Shown here: positions 36,948 to 64,000 of the stretch, in pieces
Layout of the letters: every line of letters starts with the position of its first letter
Position numbering within the stretch: position 1 is the stretch's first letter
Source of the DNA: an uncultured Candidatus Saccharibacteria bacterium
GTDB lineage: Bacteria; Patescibacteriota; Minisyncoccia; Phycocordibacterales; CAIZLB01
NCBI GenBank assembly: GCA_964450605.1
Contig: CAYVEK010000002.1
Span: forward strand, 199,805 to 263,804
Length of the DNA: 64,000 nt
Direction: 5' to 3'
The notes under the pieces: model-generated
Seen by the model: the letters and a program-made list of their open reading frames with translations, nothing else
Databases searched by the model: none
Told to the model about the DNA's origin: nothing
Translations under genes and position numbers: made by a program

Positions 36948-37012
36948 GTGTAGATATTAACATATTAACAAACTAAACCATTCTGGTTATACTCAACACT
37001 TTATTTCCCTAG

Positions 37013-37099
37013 CGGAGGAAGTGGGATTCGAACCCACGGGGCAATTTCTCACCCGACAGTTTAGTAAACTGTTGATTTAAACCACTCATCCATTCCTCC
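37013..37099 (-). tRNA. Type II (long variable arm) tRNA-Ser-like gene with anticodon ACT and no encoded CCA.
   Basis: Reverse complement GGAGGAATGGATGAGTGGTTTAAATCAACAGTTTACTAAACTGTCGGGTGAGAAATTGCCCCGTGGGTTCGAATCCCACTTCCTCCG. It has a perfect 7-bp acceptor stem, a 3-bp D-stem and G73, all Ser identity features. The anticodon stem ACAGT/ACTGT closes the loop TTACTAA. Confidence 0.55.
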
Positions 37100-49877: not shown

Positions 49878-50450
49878 TTAATCTATCATATTTCCTTTAG
49901 TAACCAAAAAATGCGAAAGCTCTTTTGCAATCTTTTTATCCATAAGAGGAATAAGATGTTGGTGATCGTTTTTCTTTTTACCTTTATCATTTTCAGATTC
50001 AAATGTATCAACTCTGGCAGTTGTTATATTTAAACGAACAACTCCAAATAATCGATAATGATACGGCTGTTCAAGATCTACATTTTGTATATGCCGATAT
50101 GGTATCAGTTTTTCCTTAACCATGAGAATACCTCGCCGAATATGAAACGAGTGATTGTCTAACATGAACTTATGCTGGGCGTGGTGCTCATACATAATGA
50201 CAGCAATAAATATTATCACAGCACCGATAATAAGAAGTAGCCACTGCGTGAGCATGGTAGTTGTTATGATTCCATCAAAATGCGAAGCAAGAAAGTTTTC
50301 AACAAACACCGCACTCTCCCCTACATGAATAAAATAAATAGCGGTTATAAGAGCGGCAACAACCAGTGTTGCTATTTTTCCATTTTTCAAAAACAAAAAC
50401 CAAAATGTCCTTTTTCCAAATGTATATTTTTTGTTTAACTCTAAAGCCAT
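49878..50450 (-). CDS. Bacterial PH-domain (YdbS/YdbT-like, bPH_2) membrane protein.
   Basis: Two transmembrane helices followed by a PH-like domain (YRLFGVVRLNITTA). Confidence 0.5.
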   Translation of the reverse strand: MALELNKKYTFGKRTFWFLFLKNGKIATLVVAALITAIYFIHVGESAVFVENFLASHFDGIITTTMLTQWLLLIIGAVIIFIAVIMYEHHAQHKFMLDNHSFHIRRGILMVKEKLIPYRHIQNVDLEQPYHYRLFGVVRLNITTARVDTFESENDKGKKKNDHQHLIPLMDKKIAKELSHFLVTKGNMID

Positions 50451-50687
50451 TTGCTTAGATTATAGCAAACAAAACTGAAATGAGTGAGGATTGCATTTGC
50501 AGGAGCCAAAGGCTCCGAAACCGCAATCCGAGGGAATTGAAGTATGTGCGCAGAAGAGGATTTGCCAACTACGTTGGCAGGTACTTTTCGACTTCGTCTC
50601 CGTATACTCCGACGAAGTAACGAAAAGTCTTTCAAATCCTCACGCAAGCCGAACTATCGGCTTGCTTTCTAGCCATGCTAACACATG

Positions 50688-50770
50688 TGCGCAGAAGAGG
50701 ATTTGAACCTCCACACCCTTACGGGCGCTACCACCTCAAGGTAGTGCGTCTACCGTTTCGCCACCTGCGC
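50688..50770 (-). tRNA. tRNA-Leu (GAG), type II.
   Basis: Reverse complement GCGCAGGTGGCGAAACGGTAGACGCACTACCTTGAGGTGGTAGCGCCCGTAAGGGTGTGGAGGTTCAAATCCTCTTCTGCGCA. It has a long variable arm and A73. Confidence 0.8.
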
Positions 50771-50795
50771 ATGCCCATAGAGTACTACAAGCAAA

Positions 50796-52193
50796 TTAAT
50801 CAATCAAGAAAAGTTTTGATGCTGTTGGATCGGTGTAACCAAAATTTATATTATCTTGCAACTGTTTGTCATACGGATAGAAGATATCATCCTTAGACAA
50901 ACCTGTACTTGTGGTAATAAGCTGTAGAATATTGTCTGTATCACACATCTCACAAGAACCTCCACTTGATACACCTTTGAGTGTGTTCAAGAGATTTGGA
51001 ATAGTATCTTTATTTTTTAGATGTAAGTTGTAGAACACCAGACCAGCATGCTTATATGTAGTTGATACATCTTGTTTACTGTTACTTATTATCACACCGG
51101 TATCAAAATAATTTCTAAATTCCTGTACAGCCTCTTCAGGTGTCATCTTTTGGTAACCAAAAGAATCTTTCCATATCTTTTTTGCTGACATTCCTTTGTG
51201 TAGATAGTTATCACTTATATACTGCTCCAAAAAAGTAGCTAACCCTTCATCAAACCATCTAGCATAGTACGGTTCTTTTCTAAAAAGTTCGGCGTTACCC
51301 ATAGCCACGTGTGCAAGCTCATGAATCAAAACCTTTTTTCTAAAAAGATCTGTCATATTTTTATCAAACATACCTGTATCAAGAAGCACTATATTGTTTG
51401 AGAGCTGTAGCGCTTCGACCTCATATTGATTTGCTTTATATTTTACTGGAGTAACAACGATGGCGACTCTTTTAGGTAGAGGTGTGCCGAGTAGTTGTTT
51501 ATATTTTGGGGCATATGTCTGTACGTCTTTTATGAGTTTTGTTGCTACGACAGAATTTTTTGATGATGATGTTAGAGTAAAGTTATCTCCCACTTTCTTG
51601 GTTGTATATGCTCCGCTCTTTTTATGCACCATAACAAACATATCATATTCATAAAAGTCCGATATTCTTTCGGGTGCGGAAACTTTAGTACTCACCTTAC
51701 CAGCCGGGATACCTGAAGAATGCTGTGAGTTTGGATATGCAAGTAGTGTAAATGAATTTGGATACTCAACTGTTATGTTTGCATCTCGAGAATATCCTCC
51801 ACTCAAAAACAAGGGAAATCTAAAGAGACTTATATTATTACTTTGTAAACCATTGTCGAGTCTATATGTAACTTTAATAGCTGTGTCTGTTGGTTTTGTA
51901 TAGACAATCGCATCAGAGTTTCCGTCCTGATAATCATTAAACTCTCGAGTCTCCCCTTTAGAGTTTTTCGCCGAGATGAGATCAAATGTACTGTATATAC
52001 CAGTAGGATCAGTCTTTCTAGAAGGAAGTACCGAAAACGTGGATTCTTGAAAAGGTGTCGGATATGTAAGTGTAACATCTGCCGCACTTGGACTAATAAT
52101 CTTTATGTTAACTTCTATAGGAACATTGTTTGCTGATGCCTGAATCGATACAAAACATAGAGCCCATAGGGTTGTGTATATAAGTCTTTTCAT
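50796..52193 (-). CDS. Secreted zinc metallopeptidase with an HExxH motif.
   Basis: HELAHV motif. The signal peptide MKRLIYTTLWALCFVSIQASA is obtained from the ATG start at 52193. Confidence 0.65.
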   Translation of the reverse strand: MKRLIYTTLWALCFVSIQASANNVPIEVNIKIISPSAADVTLTYPTPFQESTFSVLPSRKTDPTGIYSTFDLISAKNSKGETREFNDYQDGNSDAIVYTKPTDTAIKVTYRLDNGLQSNNISLFRFPLFLSGGYSRDANITVEYPNSFTLLAYPNSQHSSGIPAGKVSTKVSAPERISDFYEYDMFVMVHKKSGAYTTKKVGDNFTLTSSSKNSVVATKLIKDVQTYAPKYKQLLGTPLPKRVAIVVTPVKYKANQYEVEALQLSNNIVLLDTGMFDKNMTDLFRKKVLIHELAHVAMGNAELFRKEPYYARWFDEGLATFLEQYISDNYLHKGMSAKKIWKDSFGYQKMTPEEAVQEFRNYFDTGVIISNSKQDVSTTYKHAGLVFYNLHLKNKDTIPNLLNTLKGVSSGGSCEMCDTDNILQLITTSTGLSKDDIFYPYDKQLQDNINFGYTDPTASKLFLID

Positions 52194-52235
52194 GTCTTGA
52201 TATTTTATCATGCCCATGATATGTTTACTACGTAA

Positions 52236-53221: not shown

Positions 53222-54619
53222 ATGATAAATCTCCAAGAAAAAATAGAAAAAACACTTCTAGATGATCCGTATGATTTTACAAAAGATTTAGTTGATGGAG
53301 TTCCTCTTTTTTACAAAAACTTCCCCTCTGCTCCGTGTATACATATACGCATAGCTTTTCGTTTTGGTGCAAAACATGATCCTATAGGCAAAGAAGGTGT
53401 TGCACATCTTTTAGAGCATATGATATTTAAAGGCACAGACATCTACGAGACCGAAAAAGATATTGAATATTTTAGAAAAAATATAACTCTTGGAACATTG
53501 AATGCGTATACTGGAATGTTTGAAATGGTTGTTAAAGCAAAATGCCTTCCTTATAACTTTGAAAAATGTCTTAAAGGTATGATGAGTATAGTTGTTATGC
53601 CTAAATTAAGAGATGAAGATTTTGCTGTTGAAAAAAAGATTGTGATGGATGAAGCTTGGAGACATTTTAAAAATGAAAAACAGATAGCCTACACAAAAAA
53701 AATAAGAAATACTCATCTTTCAGATCTGCCCGACAGGCTTCGTATTGTTTCAGCACTTGGCTGGCCAGATACTATAAAAAAGATAGAAAATACAGATGTT
53801 AAAGCTACCCACAAAAAATATATAATTAAGGAAAATGTAGTCTTTTTTATCGCAGGAAACTTAGACACTGTTGGAGGATTGGATAATATCAAAAGTATTT
53901 TAAATACACATATATTAAAATTGTCGCACGGGAACCCTGCTGATTTTCCATACATTCCTGGAGAGCTTACCCTACCAACAACACCTATCTTTGATACCAC
54001 ATACACAGATGCTGGAATGACGGACAAAAAACAATCTTCAATAAATCTGTCCTACAACTTTCCTCGAGAGAAAAAAGAAAACGGGGCATTAACTTCAATA
54101 AACGAGGAGCAAACTATTGCCAAGCTGTCCCTTGCAACAAGACTTATTGATGATGTTGTGTATGAAAAGCTTCGTATGGATAAAGGTTGGTGTTACAGTG
54201 CTGGGTCAAGTTACACTGTGGAACCTGAATTTCTCAGACTAAGCCTTGGTGCAGACCTCAATCCAGAACACACCGAAGAAGCTGTTGATATATGCAAAGA
54301 TATTATAGAGAACCTAAAACAAGGACACTACAAAGATAAGTTTGATCAGGTAAAAACCTTGGCAATAGAATCAAATCTATCATCAGAACGACTGACAGGT
54401 GATATCATATCTGGTGCAGTTGATGATTTCTTGAGCGAAAACCAAACAATAACTATGAAAAAAGCTTTATTGCTCGGAAATGCAGTTACATTCGAAAACG
54501 TTGTTGAATTTGTAAACACATACATCACCCCAGACCGTCTGTTCATAGAAATCCTCAGACCAGATCCAGAGAAAAAATCTGCATTCGCGAAGATAAAGTC
54601 TCTCTTATTCAGAAAATAA
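53222..54619 (+). CDS. M16-family (pitrilysin/insulinase-like) zinc peptidase.
   Basis: Inverted zinc motif HLLEH (HxxEH) near the N-terminus. 465 aa. Confidence 0.75.
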   Translation: MINLQEKIEKTLLDDPYDFTKDLVDGVPLFYKNFPSAPCIHIRIAFRFGAKHDPIGKEGVAHLLEHMIFKGTDIYETEKDIEYFRKNITLGTLNAYTGMFEMVVKAKCLPYNFEKCLKGMMSIVVMPKLRDEDFAVEKKIVMDEAWRHFKNEKQIAYTKKIRNTHLSDLPDRLRIVSALGWPDTIKKIENTDVKATHKKYIIKENVVFFIAGNLDTVGGLDNIKSILNTHILKLSHGNPADFPYIPGELTLPTTPIFDTTYTDAGMTDKKQSSINLSYNFPREKKENGALTSINEEQTIAKLSLATRLIDDVVYEKLRMDKGWCYSAGSSYTVEPEFLRLSLGADLNPEHTEEAVDICKDIIENLKQGHYKDKFDQVKTLAIESNLSSERLTGDIISGAVDDFLSENQTITMKKALLLGNAVTFENVVEFVNTYITPDRLFIEILRPDPEKKSAFAKIKSLLFRK

Positions 54620-55369
54620 TTTATTTAAAAACTGTTCAGGGTTATCCAAAAAACCTTTAGTTATTTTGTAATGCTCCGTATCTTTATACTCGACTGTTTG
54701 AATATTTCCACCATCAAAACTCCATATCTCAGCACCAGGGTACGCGAGCAATATAGGCGAATGCGTAGCAATAATAAACTGTGTCTCTTTATTTTTGCAC
54801 AACTCTTTTAACAAAAGCAGTAGCGCCAGTTGTTTTTGTGGTGAAAGCGCTGCTTCCGGCTCATCAAATAGATAGAAACCTCCACTCCCTATTCTGTTTT
54901 TAAAAAGTGTCATAAAACTTTCTCCGTGTGATTTATTATGGAGCGAGGATCCTCCGTATGATGCATAAACAGACTCTTTAGAAACAAAAGGTATGTCAAC
55001 CATACTATCGATTTCATTTGCTAGATTAAAAAAACTTTCTGCTCTAAAAAAATAACCATCCCTTACCTTTTTGCGCCAAGAAAAAGTCATACATTCTGAA
55101 AGAGATGTAACATCGCCATCAACCATCTTTTTGTGAGTTGTTGAAAAAGATATGTTTTTACTTCCACCTTCTTTACCAAAACCAGCTTTGGTTGCAATAG
55201 CTTCAAGGACTGTAGACTTACCTGTTCCGTTTTCTCCAACCAGAAAAGTAACTTGGCTTTTAAATACAAGGTCCTGCAGATTTTTTACGATCTTGAGAGA
55301 AAAAGGGTATCCTTTTTTATTCGGAATTTGTATACGTATTTTGTCCAAAATAGGCCCAGAACTCAACAT
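54605..55369 (-). CDS. AAA-family ATPase (COG3910-like predicted ATPase).
   Basis: Walker A GENGTGKST, Walker B LFDEPEAALSP, and an ATHSP motif. Confidence 0.65.
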   Translation of the reverse strand: MLSSGPILDKIRIQIPNKKGYPFSLKIVKNLQDLVFKSQVTFLVGENGTGKSTVLEAIATKAGFGKEGGSKNISFSTTHKKMVDGDVTSLSECMTFSWRKKVRDGYFFRAESFFNLANEIDSMVDIPFVSKESVYASYGGSSLHNKSHGESFMTLFKNRIGSGGFYLFDEPEAALSPQKQLALLLLLKELCKNKETQFIIATHSPILLAYPGAEIWSFDGGNIQTVEYKDTEHYKITKGFLDNPEQFLNKLFSE

Positions 55370-55370
55370 G

Positions 55371-55442
55371 TGCTCTCGCTAGGAATCGAACCTAGATTAA
55401 CGGCTTAGAAGTCCGCAGTTCTATCCATTGAACTACGAGAGC
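55371..55442 (-). tRNA. tRNA-Arg (TCT).
   Basis: Reverse complement GCTCTCGTAGTTCAATGGATAGAACTGCGGACTTCTAAGCCGTTAATCTAGGTTCGATTCCTAGCGAGAGC. The CTTCTAA anticodon loop matches E. coli tRNA-Arg(UCU). Positions 31 and 39 are A and G. Confidence 0.75.
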
Positions 55443-58803: not shown

Positions 58804-58889
58804 GGAGGAGTGGCAGAGAGGTCGATTGCACCTGTCTTGAAAACAGGAGGGCTGTCATGGTCCCGTGAGTTCGAATCTCACCTCCTCCG
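58804..58889 (+). tRNA. tRNA-Ser (TGA), type II.
   Basis: GGAGGAGTGGCAGAGAGGTCGATTGCACCTGTCTTGAAAACAGGAGGGCTGTCATGGTCCCGTGAGTTCGAATCTCACCTCCTCCG. G73. A terminator hairpin follows at 58950-58985. Confidence 0.85.
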
Positions 58890-59008
58890 CATTAAGAACC
58901 TGGGAGTAACATTGACCCATGTACCCATGAAAGCAGGGCGACCCAGGTGCTAACAAAAACCAGCAAATATAATGCTGGTTTTTGTTTTGTGTCTGAACAC
59001 ATAATTAA

Positions 59009-59764
59009 ATGCTAAAATGCTATTTAATGACAGAGGAAACACAAAACAGTGAGACTACTCCCGATCAAACAACAGCAGAAGGTACATCTGTTTTCAATGA
59101 TAGACGGGTAAAAATTATTAATTGGATGGAACCAAAAAGTTCTGTTTTGTGTAATCTATATAAAAGCGCTGTCATTAATCTGTATAGCGAACCACCAAAG
59201 TATGGCTGGTCCATATTGGTAGCTTATGCAATTCGAGAAATTACAAACCAATTACCTAATCATGTTGCTGATTTAGAAATATCCGACAGAGGCCTGAATC
59301 GTGACGGAGAAATACAAAAAATTGGAAATATCTGGACCGAACAACAATTAAGCTCTCTGATACCAACCGAGAACACGGATACGCCATCTTCGACTGATGA
59401 CCAGACAATAATTCCAATTCCTAGAGATCTCTTTATGATTTTAGCAGATCTAGTTGAAGATAATACTAAAATTGAAGATAGAAAATACCGTAAAGCCTAC
59501 AGGCTTTTTAAAGCGATGATCCCTGAAGGTGAATTTAAAGAGAAAGATCCTATAATCAATGAGTGGGTAGGTGTCACAGGCTGGTTTTCAAAGGATGGAA
59601 AGTTCCATGTAAACAAGAATAAGACGGAGGTCGGTGATGTTGATGAATATAAGAGAAACTTTGAAATGGTCGAAAATATACTAGTAGGAGCTATTCAAAG
59701 TAGAGAAAACTTTGGACAAACACTGACAGAACTAAATACAATATTAAATCATGCCAACAGATAA
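59009..59764 (+). CDS. Hypothetical protein, 251 aa. First gene of a coupled three-gene operon.
   Basis: ORF track. It overlaps the next gene by 14 nt. An alternative start is the ATG at 59027. Confidence 0.55.
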   Translation: MLKCYLMTEETQNSETTPDQTTAEGTSVFNDRRVKIINWMEPKSSVLCNLYKSAVINLYSEPPKYGWSILVAYAIREITNQLPNHVADLEISDRGLNRDGEIQKIGNIWTEQQLSSLIPTENTDTPSSTDDQTIIPIPRDLFMILADLVEDNTKIEDRKYRKAYRLFKAMIPEGEFKEKDPIINEWVGVTGWFSKDGKFHVNKNKTEVGDVDEYKRNFEMVENILVGAIQSRENFGQTLTELNTILNHANR

Positions 59765-62579
59765 CGAAATAAATCAGGTTATAGCACTCTTAATTGAGCC
59801 AGCTCAAAGAAGTTATTTCTTTGAGAATTTAAAAAATCCTTCTTGGGTAGCCCCGCTTTACGCTAAAGGTTTTTTTAAGCATGCTCCTAATATATTGCGT
59901 AATGAAAAGGAAGGCACTGTACAGTTTCCTATTTGGCCAGAATCTAAATTCCTAGCAAAAGTTGCAGCGCAGGCCGACCCTGTAATCCTATTAAAGATTA
60001 TCAAAGAAATTGAAACAGACAATATTAGAGTGAAGGAAGATGTTTTGGAGATAATTGCGAAGCTTCCTATTGATTCTGTAATTTTAATGTCCACTAAGGT
60101 TGTTAAATACCTTGAAGATCCGTATCTACATTTTGGCAATATTCCAGAGAAAATTGGAGATATTATTGAACGGCTGGCTTCGGAGAATAAAATCGAACAG
60201 GCACTTAAGATTGCTCAGGACTTACTCCGACCAATTGCTGAGGTTCAGACTGAGGAGGCAAAAAAAATAGGCCTTCATGCAAATCCAAAATCAAAATTTG
60301 AAATTTGGGATTATGAGCAAATTCTAAAAAATAAACTAACCACTTTAAATAAAACCGAACCCTTTCTTCTACTAGACTTGTTGGTAAATCTGCTATTTAC
60401 TGCTATTAAAGTTTCCAGAGGTGAAAATAGTGACGATTCAGACACTGAAGATTATTTGTATATCAGTAGAAGAAATGTGCGAGACGAACCAAGATCTCAT
60501 AACCACGAACTAGAGGGCTTACTTATCTCAAAGATAGTCTCTGTTGCTAATTTTGCTATTCAATCAGATTCTAAAAACTTTGAACCCGTATTAAAACTAC
60601 TTGAATCAAAAAAATATAATTTTTTCAATAAGATAATTCTTTACTTACTAGCTGAATATCCTAATTTAGATCAAGCTCGAGTCACATCGTATATAAAAGA
60701 AAAAAAGTTTTTTGACGCCAATTGGATTTCACCAGAATATGAATACTTACTTAGCAATGAATTTAAAAATCTCACTCCAGAAGATCAAAAGAACATAATT
60801 GATTGGATCGAAGCAGGACCAGATCTTGAAGTATTTAAAAGGTCTGAGAAATCTTGGACAGGTAATGAACCGACAAATGAAAAGATTTCAAAATACAAAG
60901 AGGCTTGGCAACTTCGTCACCTTCACGTGCTTAAGGATTCGCTTACAGGAAATTTAATGGATAGATATATTGAACTTGTAGCAAAGTACCCAAATTTTGA
61001 CGATAAGATTCAAGAAGGTGTATTTTACGCAGCGAACGAAAGCCCTAAAACAAAAGAAGAACTTCAAAAAATGTCAGTTGATCAGGTTATTAGCCTAATC
61101 AGAGATTGGAAACAAACTGGAGATGGATATGATGGTAAACCTACCAAAGATGGGCTGAGCATTCTCCTGCGAGAAATCATCAAAGAAAAACCTGTTGATT
61201 TTTCTGATAAATTAGATGAACTTAAAGGTATTGATTCGAACTATATCTTCTCTATTCTAATGGGTATAGAGAATGGTCTTGCTGTAAATAAAAATATTCA
61301 CTGGAGTAAAGTTTTATCTTTCTTACTTGAAATATTTTCTACTTGGAAAAAAGAAAAAAAAACTGCTGTGGATACAGAGTCGTTCGATAATGCATCTAGA
61401 AGACAAGGAATAAGTTTGCTGAATGCTGGTTTGAGATCAGGTTCTTTTGAACTTAAAGATAGAAAGGAAATCTGGAGTATTATCCAAATTGCATTAGCGG
61501 ATCCTGATCCAACAATTGAACAAGATGAAAAATTTGAAGATGAAATCACTCTTGCGATAAACTCAATTAGAGGCGAAGCAATGCATAGTGTGATCGAGTA
61601 CGCTCTTTGGCTAAAACGGCACTTCGAAAAGTTACCCGATGCGGCTACACTTATCTCAAGAGGTTTTGATGAAATGCCCGAAGTTTCAGAGACCCTAAAC
61701 AATTATCTGAAATTAGAAGTTGAACCAACCAAGGCCATTAGAAGTGTTTACGGAAGATATTTTCCTTGGATACACTTGCTTGATCCAAAGTGGGCTGTAT
61801 CTAATATTAATAATATTTTTTCTCACACTGAGGAATTACATGGTGATGGTGCATGGGATGCGTTTGTGACCTTAACTTCTCCATACGATAATCTTTTAGA
61901 ACCACTAAAAGTAGAATATAAATTCAGATTAGCTAACGCAAAATTTCCAGAAAAAGATAAGAAACAACCCCTCCGAGAACCAAACGAAAGATTAGTTGAA
62001 CATGTAGTTGCTTATTACTGGAGGAGCAAGCTCAGTCTAGAGGATGATTTGATTAGAGAACTCGTAATAACTGCTGATATAAGACTTCTTTCTCATGCTA
62101 TATCTTTTATGGGAAGAGTTATATACGGCGAAAAAGATACACCTACTGATATCTTAAAAAGATTTACTGAATTTTGGGGTTACGTTTTCACTTCAGTTTC
62201 TACAGATCCATCCAGAGTAGAAGCTCTGAGAGACTTCACTTGGTGGTTTGCTTCAAATAAGTTTGAGCCAAAATGGCTTCTAGACAATTTAGAGGCAGTC
62301 ATTGATGCTTCTGCTGGTATCGATAGCGAAGATTTTGCAATAGATAACCTCGTCTTACTTTCTAAAGACACTCCCGAAAGAGTAATTATTATCCTTGAAA
62401 AAATACTGAATACGGCAAGCAAGCCGTGGGTTGCACACAGTTCAGAAAAAGAAATTATAGAGATACTTAAGAATGCTCAATACTCTGATAGTGTAATAGC
62501 AAAAGATACCGCAAAGCGTTTGGTAGATGCACTGACTAGAAAACATATGTTTAAGTTTCTTGATGTATTAAGTAAATAA
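59751..62579 (+). CDS. Large (942 aa) predicted all-alpha cytoplasmic protein of unknown function.
   Basis: ORF track. No transmembrane helix or signal peptide, and no recognisable catalytic motif. It contains an R-x4-H stretch (SIRGEAMHSV). Confidence 0.6.
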   Translation: MPTDNEINQVIALLIEPAQRSYFFENLKNPSWVAPLYAKGFFKHAPNILRNEKEGTVQFPIWPESKFLAKVAAQADPVILLKIIKEIETDNIRVKEDVLEIIAKLPIDSVILMSTKVVKYLEDPYLHFGNIPEKIGDIIERLASENKIEQALKIAQDLLRPIAEVQTEEAKKIGLHANPKSKFEIWDYEQILKNKLTTLNKTEPFLLLDLLVNLLFTAIKVSRGENSDDSDTEDYLYISRRNVRDEPRSHNHELEGLLISKIVSVANFAIQSDSKNFEPVLKLLESKKYNFFNKIILYLLAEYPNLDQARVTSYIKEKKFFDANWISPEYEYLLSNEFKNLTPEDQKNIIDWIEAGPDLEVFKRSEKSWTGNEPTNEKISKYKEAWQLRHLHVLKDSLTGNLMDRYIELVAKYPNFDDKIQEGVFYAANESPKTKEELQKMSVDQVISLIRDWKQTGDGYDGKPTKDGLSILLREIIKEKPVDFSDKLDELKGIDSNYIFSILMGIENGLAVNKNIHWSKVLSFLLEIFSTWKKEKKTAVDTESFDNASRRQGISLLNAGLRSGSFELKDRKEIWSIIQIALADPDPTIEQDEKFEDEITLAINSIRGEAMHSVIEYALWLKRHFEKLPDAATLISRGFDEMPEVSETLNNYLKLEVEPTKAIRSVYGRYFPWIHLLDPKWAVSNINNIFSHTEELHGDGAWDAFVTLTSPYDNLLEPLKVEYKFRLANAKFPEKDKKQPLREPNERLVEHVVAYYWRSKLSLEDDLIRELVITADIRLLSHAISFMGRVIYGEKDTPTDILKRFTEFWGYVFTSVSTDPSRVEALRDFTWWFASNKFEPKWLLDNLEAVIDASAGIDSEDFAIDNLVLLSKDTPERVIIILEKILNTASKPWVAHSSEKEIIEILKNAQYSDSVIAKDTAKRLVDALTRKHMFKFLDVLSK

Positions 62580-63116: not shown

Positions 63117-64000
63117 CTATTCCTTCAGAAGAGTAATCTTCTTATCTTTCAACGTTAACCTACTTCTCAAATGTCCCATCAGCTCACGCTTCTCTAGAGG
63201 GGTTCCTTCTCGCAGTACGTACTTGGCGTATTCTCTCGTATTCACATCATCCTCGTTGATGCTGTATTTTGGCGTGCCTTTGGTCGCTAGCCTCTGAAGC
63301 CTGTTGAATCGTTTGATTTCTTCTTCGAGCTTCATCCTCATGCCAAGCTCGTTGATACTTACCTTGTCGATGACCTTAAATAGTTCCTCAATTAGTTCTT
63401 CCTCTCGGATGTATTTGTTCTTGCAATTTCTGTCTTTAGATTTCGAGCATGAATAGTAGATGTACTTTGCGTTAGTGCCGTCCTTGAGTAGCTTGTACTT
63501 CTCCTGTGCGGTTATGCCTGACTCGCACATACCGCAGGTGAATAGCTTTGTGAATGCGAACTCTCGATTCTCTCGCACTATCTTGTCGCGCTTCAGTTGC
63601 TCTTGTGCTTTTCTGAATAATTCTTCAGTGATAATCGGAGTATGCTTTCCCTGATACCAGTTGCCTGAATCCTTAGGATACTCGAATGGCCCGTAGTAGA
63701 TCGGATTTTCGAATGTTCGGTACACTCCAGAGAGCGTTAGTGGCTTGTTGCCTCGAGTATGGAAATTCAGATCAAACCTTAGCCAGTTGTATACCCTTCT
63801 TCCGCTCCATCCTTCGAGTGCAACTTTTTCGAACATCTTCTTCACTATGGGTGCTCTATCTGGATCAATTGCTATCTGGCACTTCCTGTCCATGAGTTTC
63901 TGATTGAGATACCCGAGAGGTGCCATGCCTGGCCACAGTCCCATTTCCACTCTCGTCCGCAATCCTCGCTTCACGTTGATTCCTCTATTATCGTTTTCAA
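63117..64000 (-). mobile_element. Large serine recombinase (integrase). Only the 3' part of the gene is in the window, encoding the recombinase domain and zinc ribbon; the N-terminal catalytic domain lies beyond the window edge. The gene is GC-richer than its neighbours.
   Basis: Recombinase-domain pattern GLWPGMAPLGY...IDPDRAPIVKKMF. Zinc ribbon CGMCES...YYSCSKSKDRNC followed by a coiled coil. The ORF is open to the window edge. The track start is a GTG, and my coordinate count differs from the track by 1 nt near the end of the window. Confidence 0.7.

Follow-up and report, generated by a model that had tools for sequence, protein, structure and literature searches.

A Folded Non-Coding Element Bounded by a Duplicated tRNA-Leu 3' End in a Patescibacteria Genome

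The tRNA-Leu Locus

The tRNA-Leu(GAG) gene described here lies on the reverse strand of a stretch of 64,000 nucleotides (contig CAYVEK010000002.1; hereafter the window), which is placed in the Patescibacteria (Candidate Phyla Radiation, CPR) by its neighbouring genes and protein homologues. A 237-nt spacer (50451-50687) separates it from the gene of a bPH_2 membrane protein, and the tRNA's 3' end is found a second time within this spacer. The two copies bound a non-coding insertion of about 140 nt, and we lean towards the explanation that this insertion is one of a family of tRNA-linked structured RNA elements which spread by duplicating tRNA 3' ends. The features are listed below in the direction of the tRNA; H0, H1, H3, and H4 are hairpins, P1 and P2 are helices formed with the distal repeat copy (the tail), and R1 and R2 are covariance models built from the tRNA-Leu copies only and from all 14 copies, respectively.

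50688-50770, reverse strand: tRNA-Leu(GAG) (Rfam RF00005, 50.2 bits; ARAGORN gives 50687-50770)
50685-50705, reverse strand: repeat copy 1, made up of the tRNA's 3'-terminal 18 nt (from C56 in the T loop through the T-stem 3' strand and the acceptor 3' strand to discriminator A73) and of CAT
50544-50684, reverse strand: the 141-nt unit of element body and repeat copy 2 (covariance-model matches at 50535-50690, R1 185.6 bits, R2 158.1 bits)
50674-50687, reverse strand: H0, hairpin CAUG UGUUAG CAUG, beginning one base past the discriminator (fold)
50667-50671, reverse strand: P1 5' strand UAGAA, with UUCUG of the tail (50551-50555) as its partner (minimum-energy folds)
50644-50665, reverse strand: H1, 9-bp hairpin GCAAGCCGA-UAGU-UCGGCUUGC (covariation)
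50631-50641, reverse strand: antisense segment GAGGAUUUGAA, perfect complement of the tRNA-Leu T loop and T-stem 3' strand; its first 8-9 nt are the 5' strand of P2
50584-50627, reverse strand: H3, the long hairpin, its 7+8 bp interrupted by a UU bulge (fold, covariation)
50564-50578, reverse strand: H4, GCCAAC-GUA-GUUGGC, the GUA loop being kept family-wide (covariation)
50544-50564, reverse strand: repeat copy 2, the tail of the element, with the P2 3' strand (50556-50563), the P1 3' strand (50551-50555), and then CGCACAU
50488-50529, reverse strand: nested hairpin followed by U-rich sequence (present in the fold; strain-specific, outside the family element)
50459-50467, reverse strand: TGCTATAAT, an extended -10 sequence, with the bPH_2 ATG (50448-50450) eight nt on (read from the sequence)

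A first-pass annotation had pointed out the repeated 21-mer ATGTGCGCAGAAGAGGATTTG (plus strand), the origin of the copy at 50685-50705 in the 3' 18 nt of the tRNA plus three flanking nucleotides, and the length of the spacer, and all three are confirmed. The copies at 50544-50564 and 50685-50705 are 141 nt apart, as also given by a repeat finder. No third copy exists in the window when up to three mismatches are allowed, and 0 of 100 dinucleotide-preserving shuffles contained a match. The flank is CAT, and the tRNA is called by both Rfam and ARAGORN. The tRNA is intact and ends with ...GCGCA followed by CAT, CCA not being encoded, and its sequence is identical to that of the tRNA at the empty site of a relative, L003.

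Folding of the spacer, which had been proposed as a check, gave -86.7 kcal/mol on the tRNA strand compared to -59.8 +/- 4.6 kcal/mol for shuffled sequences (z = -5.9), a far more stable fold. The hairpin that the annotation had placed at 50584-50629 is real, with 50584-50627 as its exact span. The nested stem-loop at 50488-50529 does occur in the minimum-energy fold, but lies outside the element and is replaced in L002; going by its sequence it is a possible terminator, and the terminator scan gave no call for it. The segment 50631-50641, which reads GAGGATTTGAA on the tRNA strand, complements the tRNA's T loop and T-stem 3' strand perfectly over 11 nt, and therefore both repeat copies as well.

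Filled and Empty Sites in Relatives

The corresponding loci of relatives (given as L-numbers) were gathered through the bPH_2 protein, and one scan of metagenome DNA gave a single additional locus, L027. In L016-L026 (bPH_2 identity 43-51%) the start codon comes directly after tRNA-Leu, ...GCGCAC being followed by ATG, and the same zero spacer is found in L003 (bPH_2 identity 88%). Since both the distant relatives and L003 lack a spacer, the 237-nt spacer of the window is derived, and the repeat bounds a derived insertion of about 140 nt.

The tRNA-Leu element, i.e., about 120 nt plus the second copy of the tRNA end, is present in the window together with L001 and L002, in L027, in L006-L008 and L010, in L029-L034, and in L012. 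It is absent from L003, L035, L028, L011, L013, and all more distant relatives, and probably also from L004, which resembles L002 minus the element. A rough tree drawn from bPH_2 proteins has carriers and non-carriers interspersed with one another. Occupied orthologous sites, which the annotation had suggested looking for in relatives, exist alongside empty ones, and the shuffling speaks against its fallback of a chance local duplication.

The 5' limit of the repeat is fixed in the T loop, while the length varies among lineages from 18 nt (L012 and L029), 19 nt (L006), and 20 nt (L002) to 21 nt in the window and 27 nt in L027. The tRNA of L029 carries the variant C66, which is found in both repeat copies. 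The window and L002 encode identical bPH_2 proteins and are near-identical through repeat copy 2, but diverge exactly past ...GCGCACA and are unrelated from there up to the promoter; the hairpin at 50488-50529 is therefore considered strain-specific and not a part of the element.

The annotation had suggested an integrase attachment-site (att) or excision scar, and this is supported in part, by the duplicated tRNA 3' end that bounds an insertion with presence/absence polymorphism. A tyrosine-integrase element would then have entered at the T loop and 3' end of tRNA-Leu and have lost its interior, leaving attL and attR about 120 nt apart, or a cis-mobilizable element (CIME) would be present. 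Like att cores at tRNA genes, the repeat begins in the T loop and extends beyond the end of the tRNA. Filled and empty sites are both found, and in L002 the exchange of modules falls precisely where repeat copy 2 ends. CIMEs by definition keep attL and attR while their integration genes are lost (PMC5704250). Like attL/attR pairs and CIMEs, the inserted DNA lies behind an intact tRNA, varies in presence among relatives, and has further modules accreting at the distal repeat (PMC5704250). Unlike these, its unit is 141 nt and no integrase-bearing relative was found. No integrase was detected in or beside any of about 20 element copies; the 120-nt interior is too short for an open reading frame (ORF), and among the ORFs of the window locus the sole recombinase-like one is a serine-recombinase fragment 12 kb away. 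Nor was a related attP met in the collections searched, scans of IMG/VR with the 21-mer and two element patterns and blastn of the element against phage and plasmid collections all giving 0 matches.

Several other arrangements are seen at this position. In L012 (2807-3290) the element is followed by a collapsed partial second copy, consisting of H0 and then GCGCAGA...UCUGCGC closing a short loop, and by about 450 nt of more G+C-rich DNA before the promoter, in which no ORF was recognised by eye and no Rfam match was obtained. In L015 (2554-4000) two ORFs of about 240 and 206 amino acids (no Pfam match) are found between tRNA-Leu and the bPH_2 gene; the first begins 2 nt past the tRNA end, and the second copy of the tRNA end is absent. 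L006 (7831-7953) has a second module after the tRNA-end copy, with 26-nt perfect inverted repeats around 71 nt that contain a terminator-like hairpin. These 71 nt have the opposite orientation in L009 (1-54), which has the same protein and comes from another sample, and related modules are found in L002 and L004. The module would be an invertible switch located upstream of the bPH_2 gene, or else an element resembling miniature inverted-repeat transposable elements (MITEs). The complete tRNA-Leu gene of L011 (686-769) has been turned around with respect to the gene downstream, and L028 (1-267) contains a partial second copy of the bPH_2 gene, inverted, beyond tRNA-Val. In L022 (3898-3982), a metagenome-assembled genome of Paceibacteria, the position of tRNA-Leu(GAG) holds a tRNA of the same type with the anticodon UUA, labelled 'tRNA-Stop' by ARAGORN; this could be an ochre suppressor, or else indicate recoding.

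A Conserved Fold with Compensatory Changes

Five further lineages conserve the roughly 120 nt bracketed by the repeats, and compensatory changes are seen in three hairpins. Six distinct copies of the tRNA-Leu element were aligned. In this alignment 96.4% of the cells pair and both-sided changes occur at seven pairs, which was reached by 0 of 500 shuffles, and slid controls show 35-49% pairing. The closing pair of H1 occurs as GC, CG, UA, AU, and GU. H3 displays G-C to A-U changes, as well as multiple double changes in L012, H4 displays A-U to G-C changes, and H0 has double-sided changes, the compensatory variants being CAUGC/GCGUG in L002 and CACGC/GCGUG in L027. Read from the sequence, P1 of L029 is CGGGA/UCCUG, a compensatory change that takes in the tRNA-end variant C66.

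When the alignment is extended to 14 sequences of the family, pairing reaches 93.3% of the cells, with both-sided changes at 34 of the 42 pairs; these counts are somewhat inflated since this alignment was fitted to the model, which favours structure. The observed values were reached by none of 500 shuffles on any measure, and slid partners pair at 35-52%. Family-wide, both-sided changes are found at 8 of the 9 pairs in H1, 12 of 15 in H3, and 5 of 6 in H4. Within the helices, G-U pairs outnumber A-C mismatches 10 to 1 on the tRNA strand. Conserved single-stranded motifs are UAGAAAG ahead of H1, GAAAAG past the antisense segment, GGUGUACUG linking H3 to H4, and GUA as the H4 loop.

Judged from these comparisons, the 120-nt interior is under selection for its fold and is not decaying, and this conservation with covariation speaks against an att scar. 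The compensatory changes and the consistent orientation of the copies are those of a structured non-coding RNA in the alignments, and the small RNA that the annotation had named as an alternative thus comes close. Support is good both for the fold and for its link with tRNA ends.

The element family is absent from Rfam 15. At gathering thresholds the window contains eight tRNAs and nothing else, and permissive scans of 50300-50900, of L017 (1-2050), and of L012 (2780-3330) gave chance-level matches or none apart from true tRNAs. The Rfam search proposed by the annotation thus returned tRNAs; at 50544-50687 nothing resembling a tRNA gene was detected by ARAGORN or Rfam even at E <= 10, only the true tRNA being found, and neither the Rfam tRNA clan (CL00001) nor the Y-RNA models match the element. 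A second, degenerate tRNA or a T-loop intron was rejected, as repeat copy 1 already completes a normal tRNA, no tRNA model gave a score, and no bulge-helix-bulge was recognised by eye. Hammerhead and other small ribozymes were likewise rejected; the order of the junction motifs is unlike that of a hammerhead, and Rfam is silent. A limited full-text search of the literature on tRNA-linked elements in Patescibacteria/CPR found no description of the element.

Copies Behind Other tRNA Genes

R1, although built from tRNA-Leu copies only, also matches directly 3' of tRNA-Val(TAC) in six loci (L010, L022, L024, L019, L017, and L020), 3' of tRNA-Arg(TCT) in L024, and at a second copy in L017, 1.3 kb further on. 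These non-Leu matches score 34-60 bits (E 1e-12 to 1e-6). With R2, further copies come up behind tRNA-Ser(TGA) in L006 and, as a remnant, behind tRNA-Ser in L003; L015, L016, and L021 have weaker tRNA-Val copies, and L017 has a third one in tandem. All copies are on the tRNA strand just 3' of tRNA genes (Leu, Val, Arg, and Ser), and the family element is about 130-160 nt long. Tandem or partial tandem copies are found in L017 and L012.

The three copies of L017 (1-1756) stand in a row behind tRNA-Val, the first and second being separated by 1.3 kb with two ORFs (158 and 210 amino acids), and the second alone has a perfect 22-nt copy of the tRNA-Val end. No informative domain was found by Pfam in the ORFs between these copies or in those after tRNA-Leu in L015.

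From 5' to 3' the family anatomy is H0, the P1 5' strand, H1, the antisense segment (P2 5' strand), H3 and H4 with conserved junctions linking the two, and the tail. The tail consists of the last 18-22 nt of the tRNA and 1-3 flanking nt, and closes the domain by pairing back with the antisense segment to form P2 and, in many copies, also P1, where a short strand ahead of H1 pairs with the acceptor part of the tail. Examples of P1 are UAGAA/UUCUG in the window, GCGAU/AUCGC in one L017 copy (L017a), and GUGCUCUC/GAGAGUAC in the tRNA-Arg copy. Both tail and antisense segment follow the local tRNA:

Leu copies: tail exact over 18-21 nt, antisense GAGGAUUUGAA
Val copy L017a: tail exact over 22 nt, antisense GGGACUUGAA
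Other Val copies: tail decayed yet recognisable, antisense GGGACUUGAA, up to 13 nt in L020
Arg copy: tail decayed yet recognisable, antisense GGUUGGAAUCGAA
Ser copy: tail exact over 18 nt, antisense AGAUUCGAA

Complementarity of the antisense segment to the local T loop and T-stem 3' strand is exact over 9-13 nt in 14 of the 16 copies. P2 is nearly invariant within one tRNA type while H1, H3, and H4 covary, and the tails of old copies show decay in their acceptor part, the antisense segment nevertheless staying an exact complement of the tRNA.

The integrase explanation does not readily account for this distribution. One attP core cannot easily give rise to elements at four tRNA species, each with a matched tail and a matched antisense segment, and an interior that is a covarying fold carrying an antisense copy of the core sets the element apart from attL/attR pairs and CIMEs. 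An integrase element also supplies the new 3' end of its tRNA from its own attP, and a jump between tRNA species would thus give a chimeric tRNA. We therefore regard an att scar or a CIME as rather unlikely.

A further suggestion is that the hairpins are plain punctuation, which terminates or stabilises the tRNA transcript, and that the repeat is a chance duplication. The spacer is indeed highly structured and many copies are flanked by terminator-like hairpins. The 21-mer repeat is, however, unexpected by chance, and the recurrence of the same architecture with tRNA-matched tails at four tRNA species largely refutes the suggestion. The conserved junction sequences and the three-way junction exceed what a terminator needs, many relatives do without any spacer, and the probability of this explanation must be considered very small.

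It has also been considered that the element is a site for recombination in folded single-stranded DNA. Integron attC sites and the attP(+) of CTX phage are imperfect palindromes of about 60-140 nt in which two inverted copies of the core pair within one strand. In the same manner P1 and P2 of the element would rebuild the duplex of the tRNA 3' end in one strand, a recombinase that acts on the tRNA gene would act on the element too, and gene cassettes might be captured behind tRNA genes. As in attC and attP(+), the inverted core copies of the element pair within one strand; antisense and sense target copies are separated by about 75 nt of hairpins, and the strand-specific G-U (G-T in DNA) bias suits folding of one DNA strand as well as it suits RNA. 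The 1.3 kb with two ORFs between element copies in L017, the additional genes right after tRNA-Leu in L015, and a peptidase-like gene that only the window lineage has between tRNA-Val and tRNA-Leu would fit cassette capture. On the other hand, these cassette-like cases are few and only putatively mobile, and no integron-type or other recombinase was found nearby. On visual inspection the helix P2 is perfect and free of the extrahelical bases typical of attC, and the element has neither the R'/R'' consensus nor an integrase. The additional features, conserved single-stranded junction motifs and three covarying side hairpins, resemble those of a functional RNA. A folded recombination site is thus an improbable explanation.

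Proposed Origin and Function

We return to the preferred explanation, a family of structured RNA elements that spreads by duplication of tRNA 3' ends. The element would be an RNA domain transcribed together with, or just after, its tRNA, and its action as a transcribed RNA is suggested for the tRNA strand. New copies would arise by insertion or duplication at a tRNA 3' end, in the course of which the end of the target itself is copied. Such copying would account for the constant match between tail and local tRNA, and a target-derived tail is also indicated because an element-borne core moving between tRNA species would make chimeric tRNAs. The antisense strand would stay, or become, complementary to the tail afterwards. 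As P2 keeps the tRNA sequence while the other helices covary freely, we infer that the antisense segment has a tRNA-specific partner; this would be the cognate tRNA in its 3' part, either the RNA itself or the DNA of its gene, with the tail as an internal stand-in. The tRNA-Leu copy of the window would be young, its repeat being perfect, and loss in several relatives would probably have taken place by deletion between the two repeat copies.

A number of observations weigh against this explanation. The pairwise identity of the tRNA-Leu elements roughly tracks host phylogeny, and one ancient gain followed by at least four losses is therefore as parsimonious as repeated insertion. An insertion enzyme was not identified in the examined loci, terminal inverted repeats are absent, and one copy in a 64-kb window with eight tRNAs does not make a high-copy repeat. 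Transcription is suggested by strand bias and position, while the G-U bias would fit one-strand DNA folding equally well. Between tRNA and element, the Val, Arg, and Ser copies have a terminator-like hairpin with a U run, which could block co-transcription. P1 is weak in L006 and L012, and the inflation of the 14-sequence counts should be borne in mind.

A more specific proposal can be made tentatively, and we hold it to be possible though on the doubtful side. Here the elements would be tRNA-specific pairs of guide and mimic, in which a guide, antisense to one tRNA's 3' part (T loop to acceptor), is held closed by an internal copy of that end, and which work as a mobile element or as an RNA switch. 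In the first case, a non-autonomous mobile element would base-pair to the 3' ends of tRNA genes and duplicate them on insertion. In the second, the RNA would sense the 3' end or fragments of the cognate tRNA through strand displacement of its own tail.

Comparison with Other tRNA-Linked Elements

A parallel to the target-derived repeat is found in casposons, which insert by a Cas1-type integrase. The target of a casposon takes in the T-loop-coding part of a tRNA gene, a segment able to direct the insertion, and the target-derived repeat is 15 bp with a 5 bp overlap with the 3' end of tRNA-Pro (PMC5137440). What the element has in common with it is a long direct repeat that derives from the target and includes the end of a tRNA gene (PMC5137440), and a repeat made in this style would explain why the tails always match the local tRNA. 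It differs in that the repeat has a variable length of 18-27 nt and lies almost wholly inside the tRNA, in the absence of terminal inverted repeats, and in that no Cas1 or polymerase genes were seen in the examined loci. Insertion of the casposon type by Cas1 was accordingly rejected for the loci examined. A MITE or another DNA-transposon derivative was rejected because the element ends (GTGTTAGCATGG... and ...GCCAACGTAGTTGG) have no inverted-repeat relation and the repeat length is not fixed. A high-copy repeat was rejected as well, since a covariance search with filters off found one copy in the window.

In tRNA-like modules, such as those of the Y-RNA-like YrlA RNAs, viral tRNA-like structures, and mascRNA, a non-tRNA RNA has the 3' strand of a tRNA T stem and acceptor paired to a 5' strand. 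The element similarly has T-stem and acceptor 3' sequence paired to a complementary 5' strand. Unlike in these modules, the T-loop nucleotides are base-paired so that no T loop is formed, and in some copies the helix passes the discriminator, which leaves no tRNA-like 3' overhang. A minihelix mimic serving as an RNase Z site was rejected; the outer acceptor positions are unpaired in the Leu copies, the helix of the Arg copy runs through the discriminator, and the geometry is not tRNA-like. A retroviral-type primer-binding site was also rejected, the antisense being split by H1 and lacking a complement to CCA.

Functional RNAs are also known from the trailers of tRNA transcripts, for instance the 3' external transcribed spacer (3'ETS) small RNA 3'ETS-leuZ of E. 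coli. The element is likewise a candidate for a trailer-derived RNA, but has no similarity to 3'ETS-leuZ in sequence or structure. Small RNAs of the 3'ETS type are not known to copy or complement the 3' end of their own tRNA.

Neighbouring Genes and Other Features of the Window

Downstream of tRNA-Leu, on the same strand, the bPH_2 gene (49878-50450) is followed by genes for PAP2, DUF948, two SIMPL proteins, SecE, NusG, and L11. Upstream, an M1-peptidase-like gene (50796-52217, reverse strand) lies between tRNA-Val and tRNA-Leu. This gene is found at the tRNA pair in the lineages of the window, L003, L012, and L027 only; elsewhere the two tRNA genes are divergent and about 70 nt apart, and the peptidase-like gene is therefore itself an insertion at that place.

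A consensus promoter scan gave no call for the -10 element at 50459-50467, and its -35 is poor. An arrangement of TATAAT, about 7 nt, and ATG is shared by L027, L012, L013, L011, and L035, and the sequence implies a leaderless or near-leaderless bPH_2 mRNA. More generally, where a spacer separates tRNA and gene, TATAAT is found about 7 nt ahead of ATG, while tRNA-Leu directly abuts the bPH_2 gene in L003, L016, L019, L020, L022, L025, and L026. A zero spacer is also found for tRNA-Arg(TCT) of the window (55369-55442), which ends with ...GAGAGCAC, the AAA-ATPase ORF 54605-55369 (reverse strand) beginning at the next base, and likewise at L003 3723-3796. As read from these junctions, this suggests either leaderless mRNAs produced by tRNA 3' processing, comparable to mitochondrial tRNA punctuation, or a promoter placed at the start codon.

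The window also encodes a tRNA-Ser with the anticodon ACT (37012-37099, reverse strand); the A at position 34 is unusual for bacteria. An ORF at 63117-63974 (reverse strand), 12 kb from the repeat, has Recombinase and Zn_ribbon_recom domains, corresponding to C-terminal parts of a large serine recombinase, and probably runs off the end of the window. It is preceded by two large ORFs without Pfam match (59009-62579), which are found just after tRNA-Ser(TGA) at 58804-58890. Together these ORFs may represent an integrated element, which has no relation to the 21-nt repeat.

Significance

Duplicated tRNA 3' ends are usually attributed to integrases. In the present case such a footprint comes from a very small non-coding element with a conserved fold, which recurs behind several tRNA species with its sequence tuned to each. 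Two known kinds are combined, a tRNA-end duplication that flanks an insertion and a non-coding RNA linked to a tRNA, in an element which itself has no Rfam 15 entry. If it acts as RNA, it would represent a new tRNA-linked RNA family in Patescibacteria with a built-in pair of antisense and mimic for the tRNA 3' end, and if it is mobile, it would point to an unknown way of targeting tRNA genes. Should the proposal of guide and mimic be true, either as an insertion system or as a switch, it would be a kind of system without earlier description. The covariance models and the empty and filled sites make these questions testable in metagenomes and metatranscriptomes. The tRNAs that abut start codons recall the tRNA punctuation of mitochondria, and offer a test bed for the coupling of tRNA processing and leaderless translation in bacteria.

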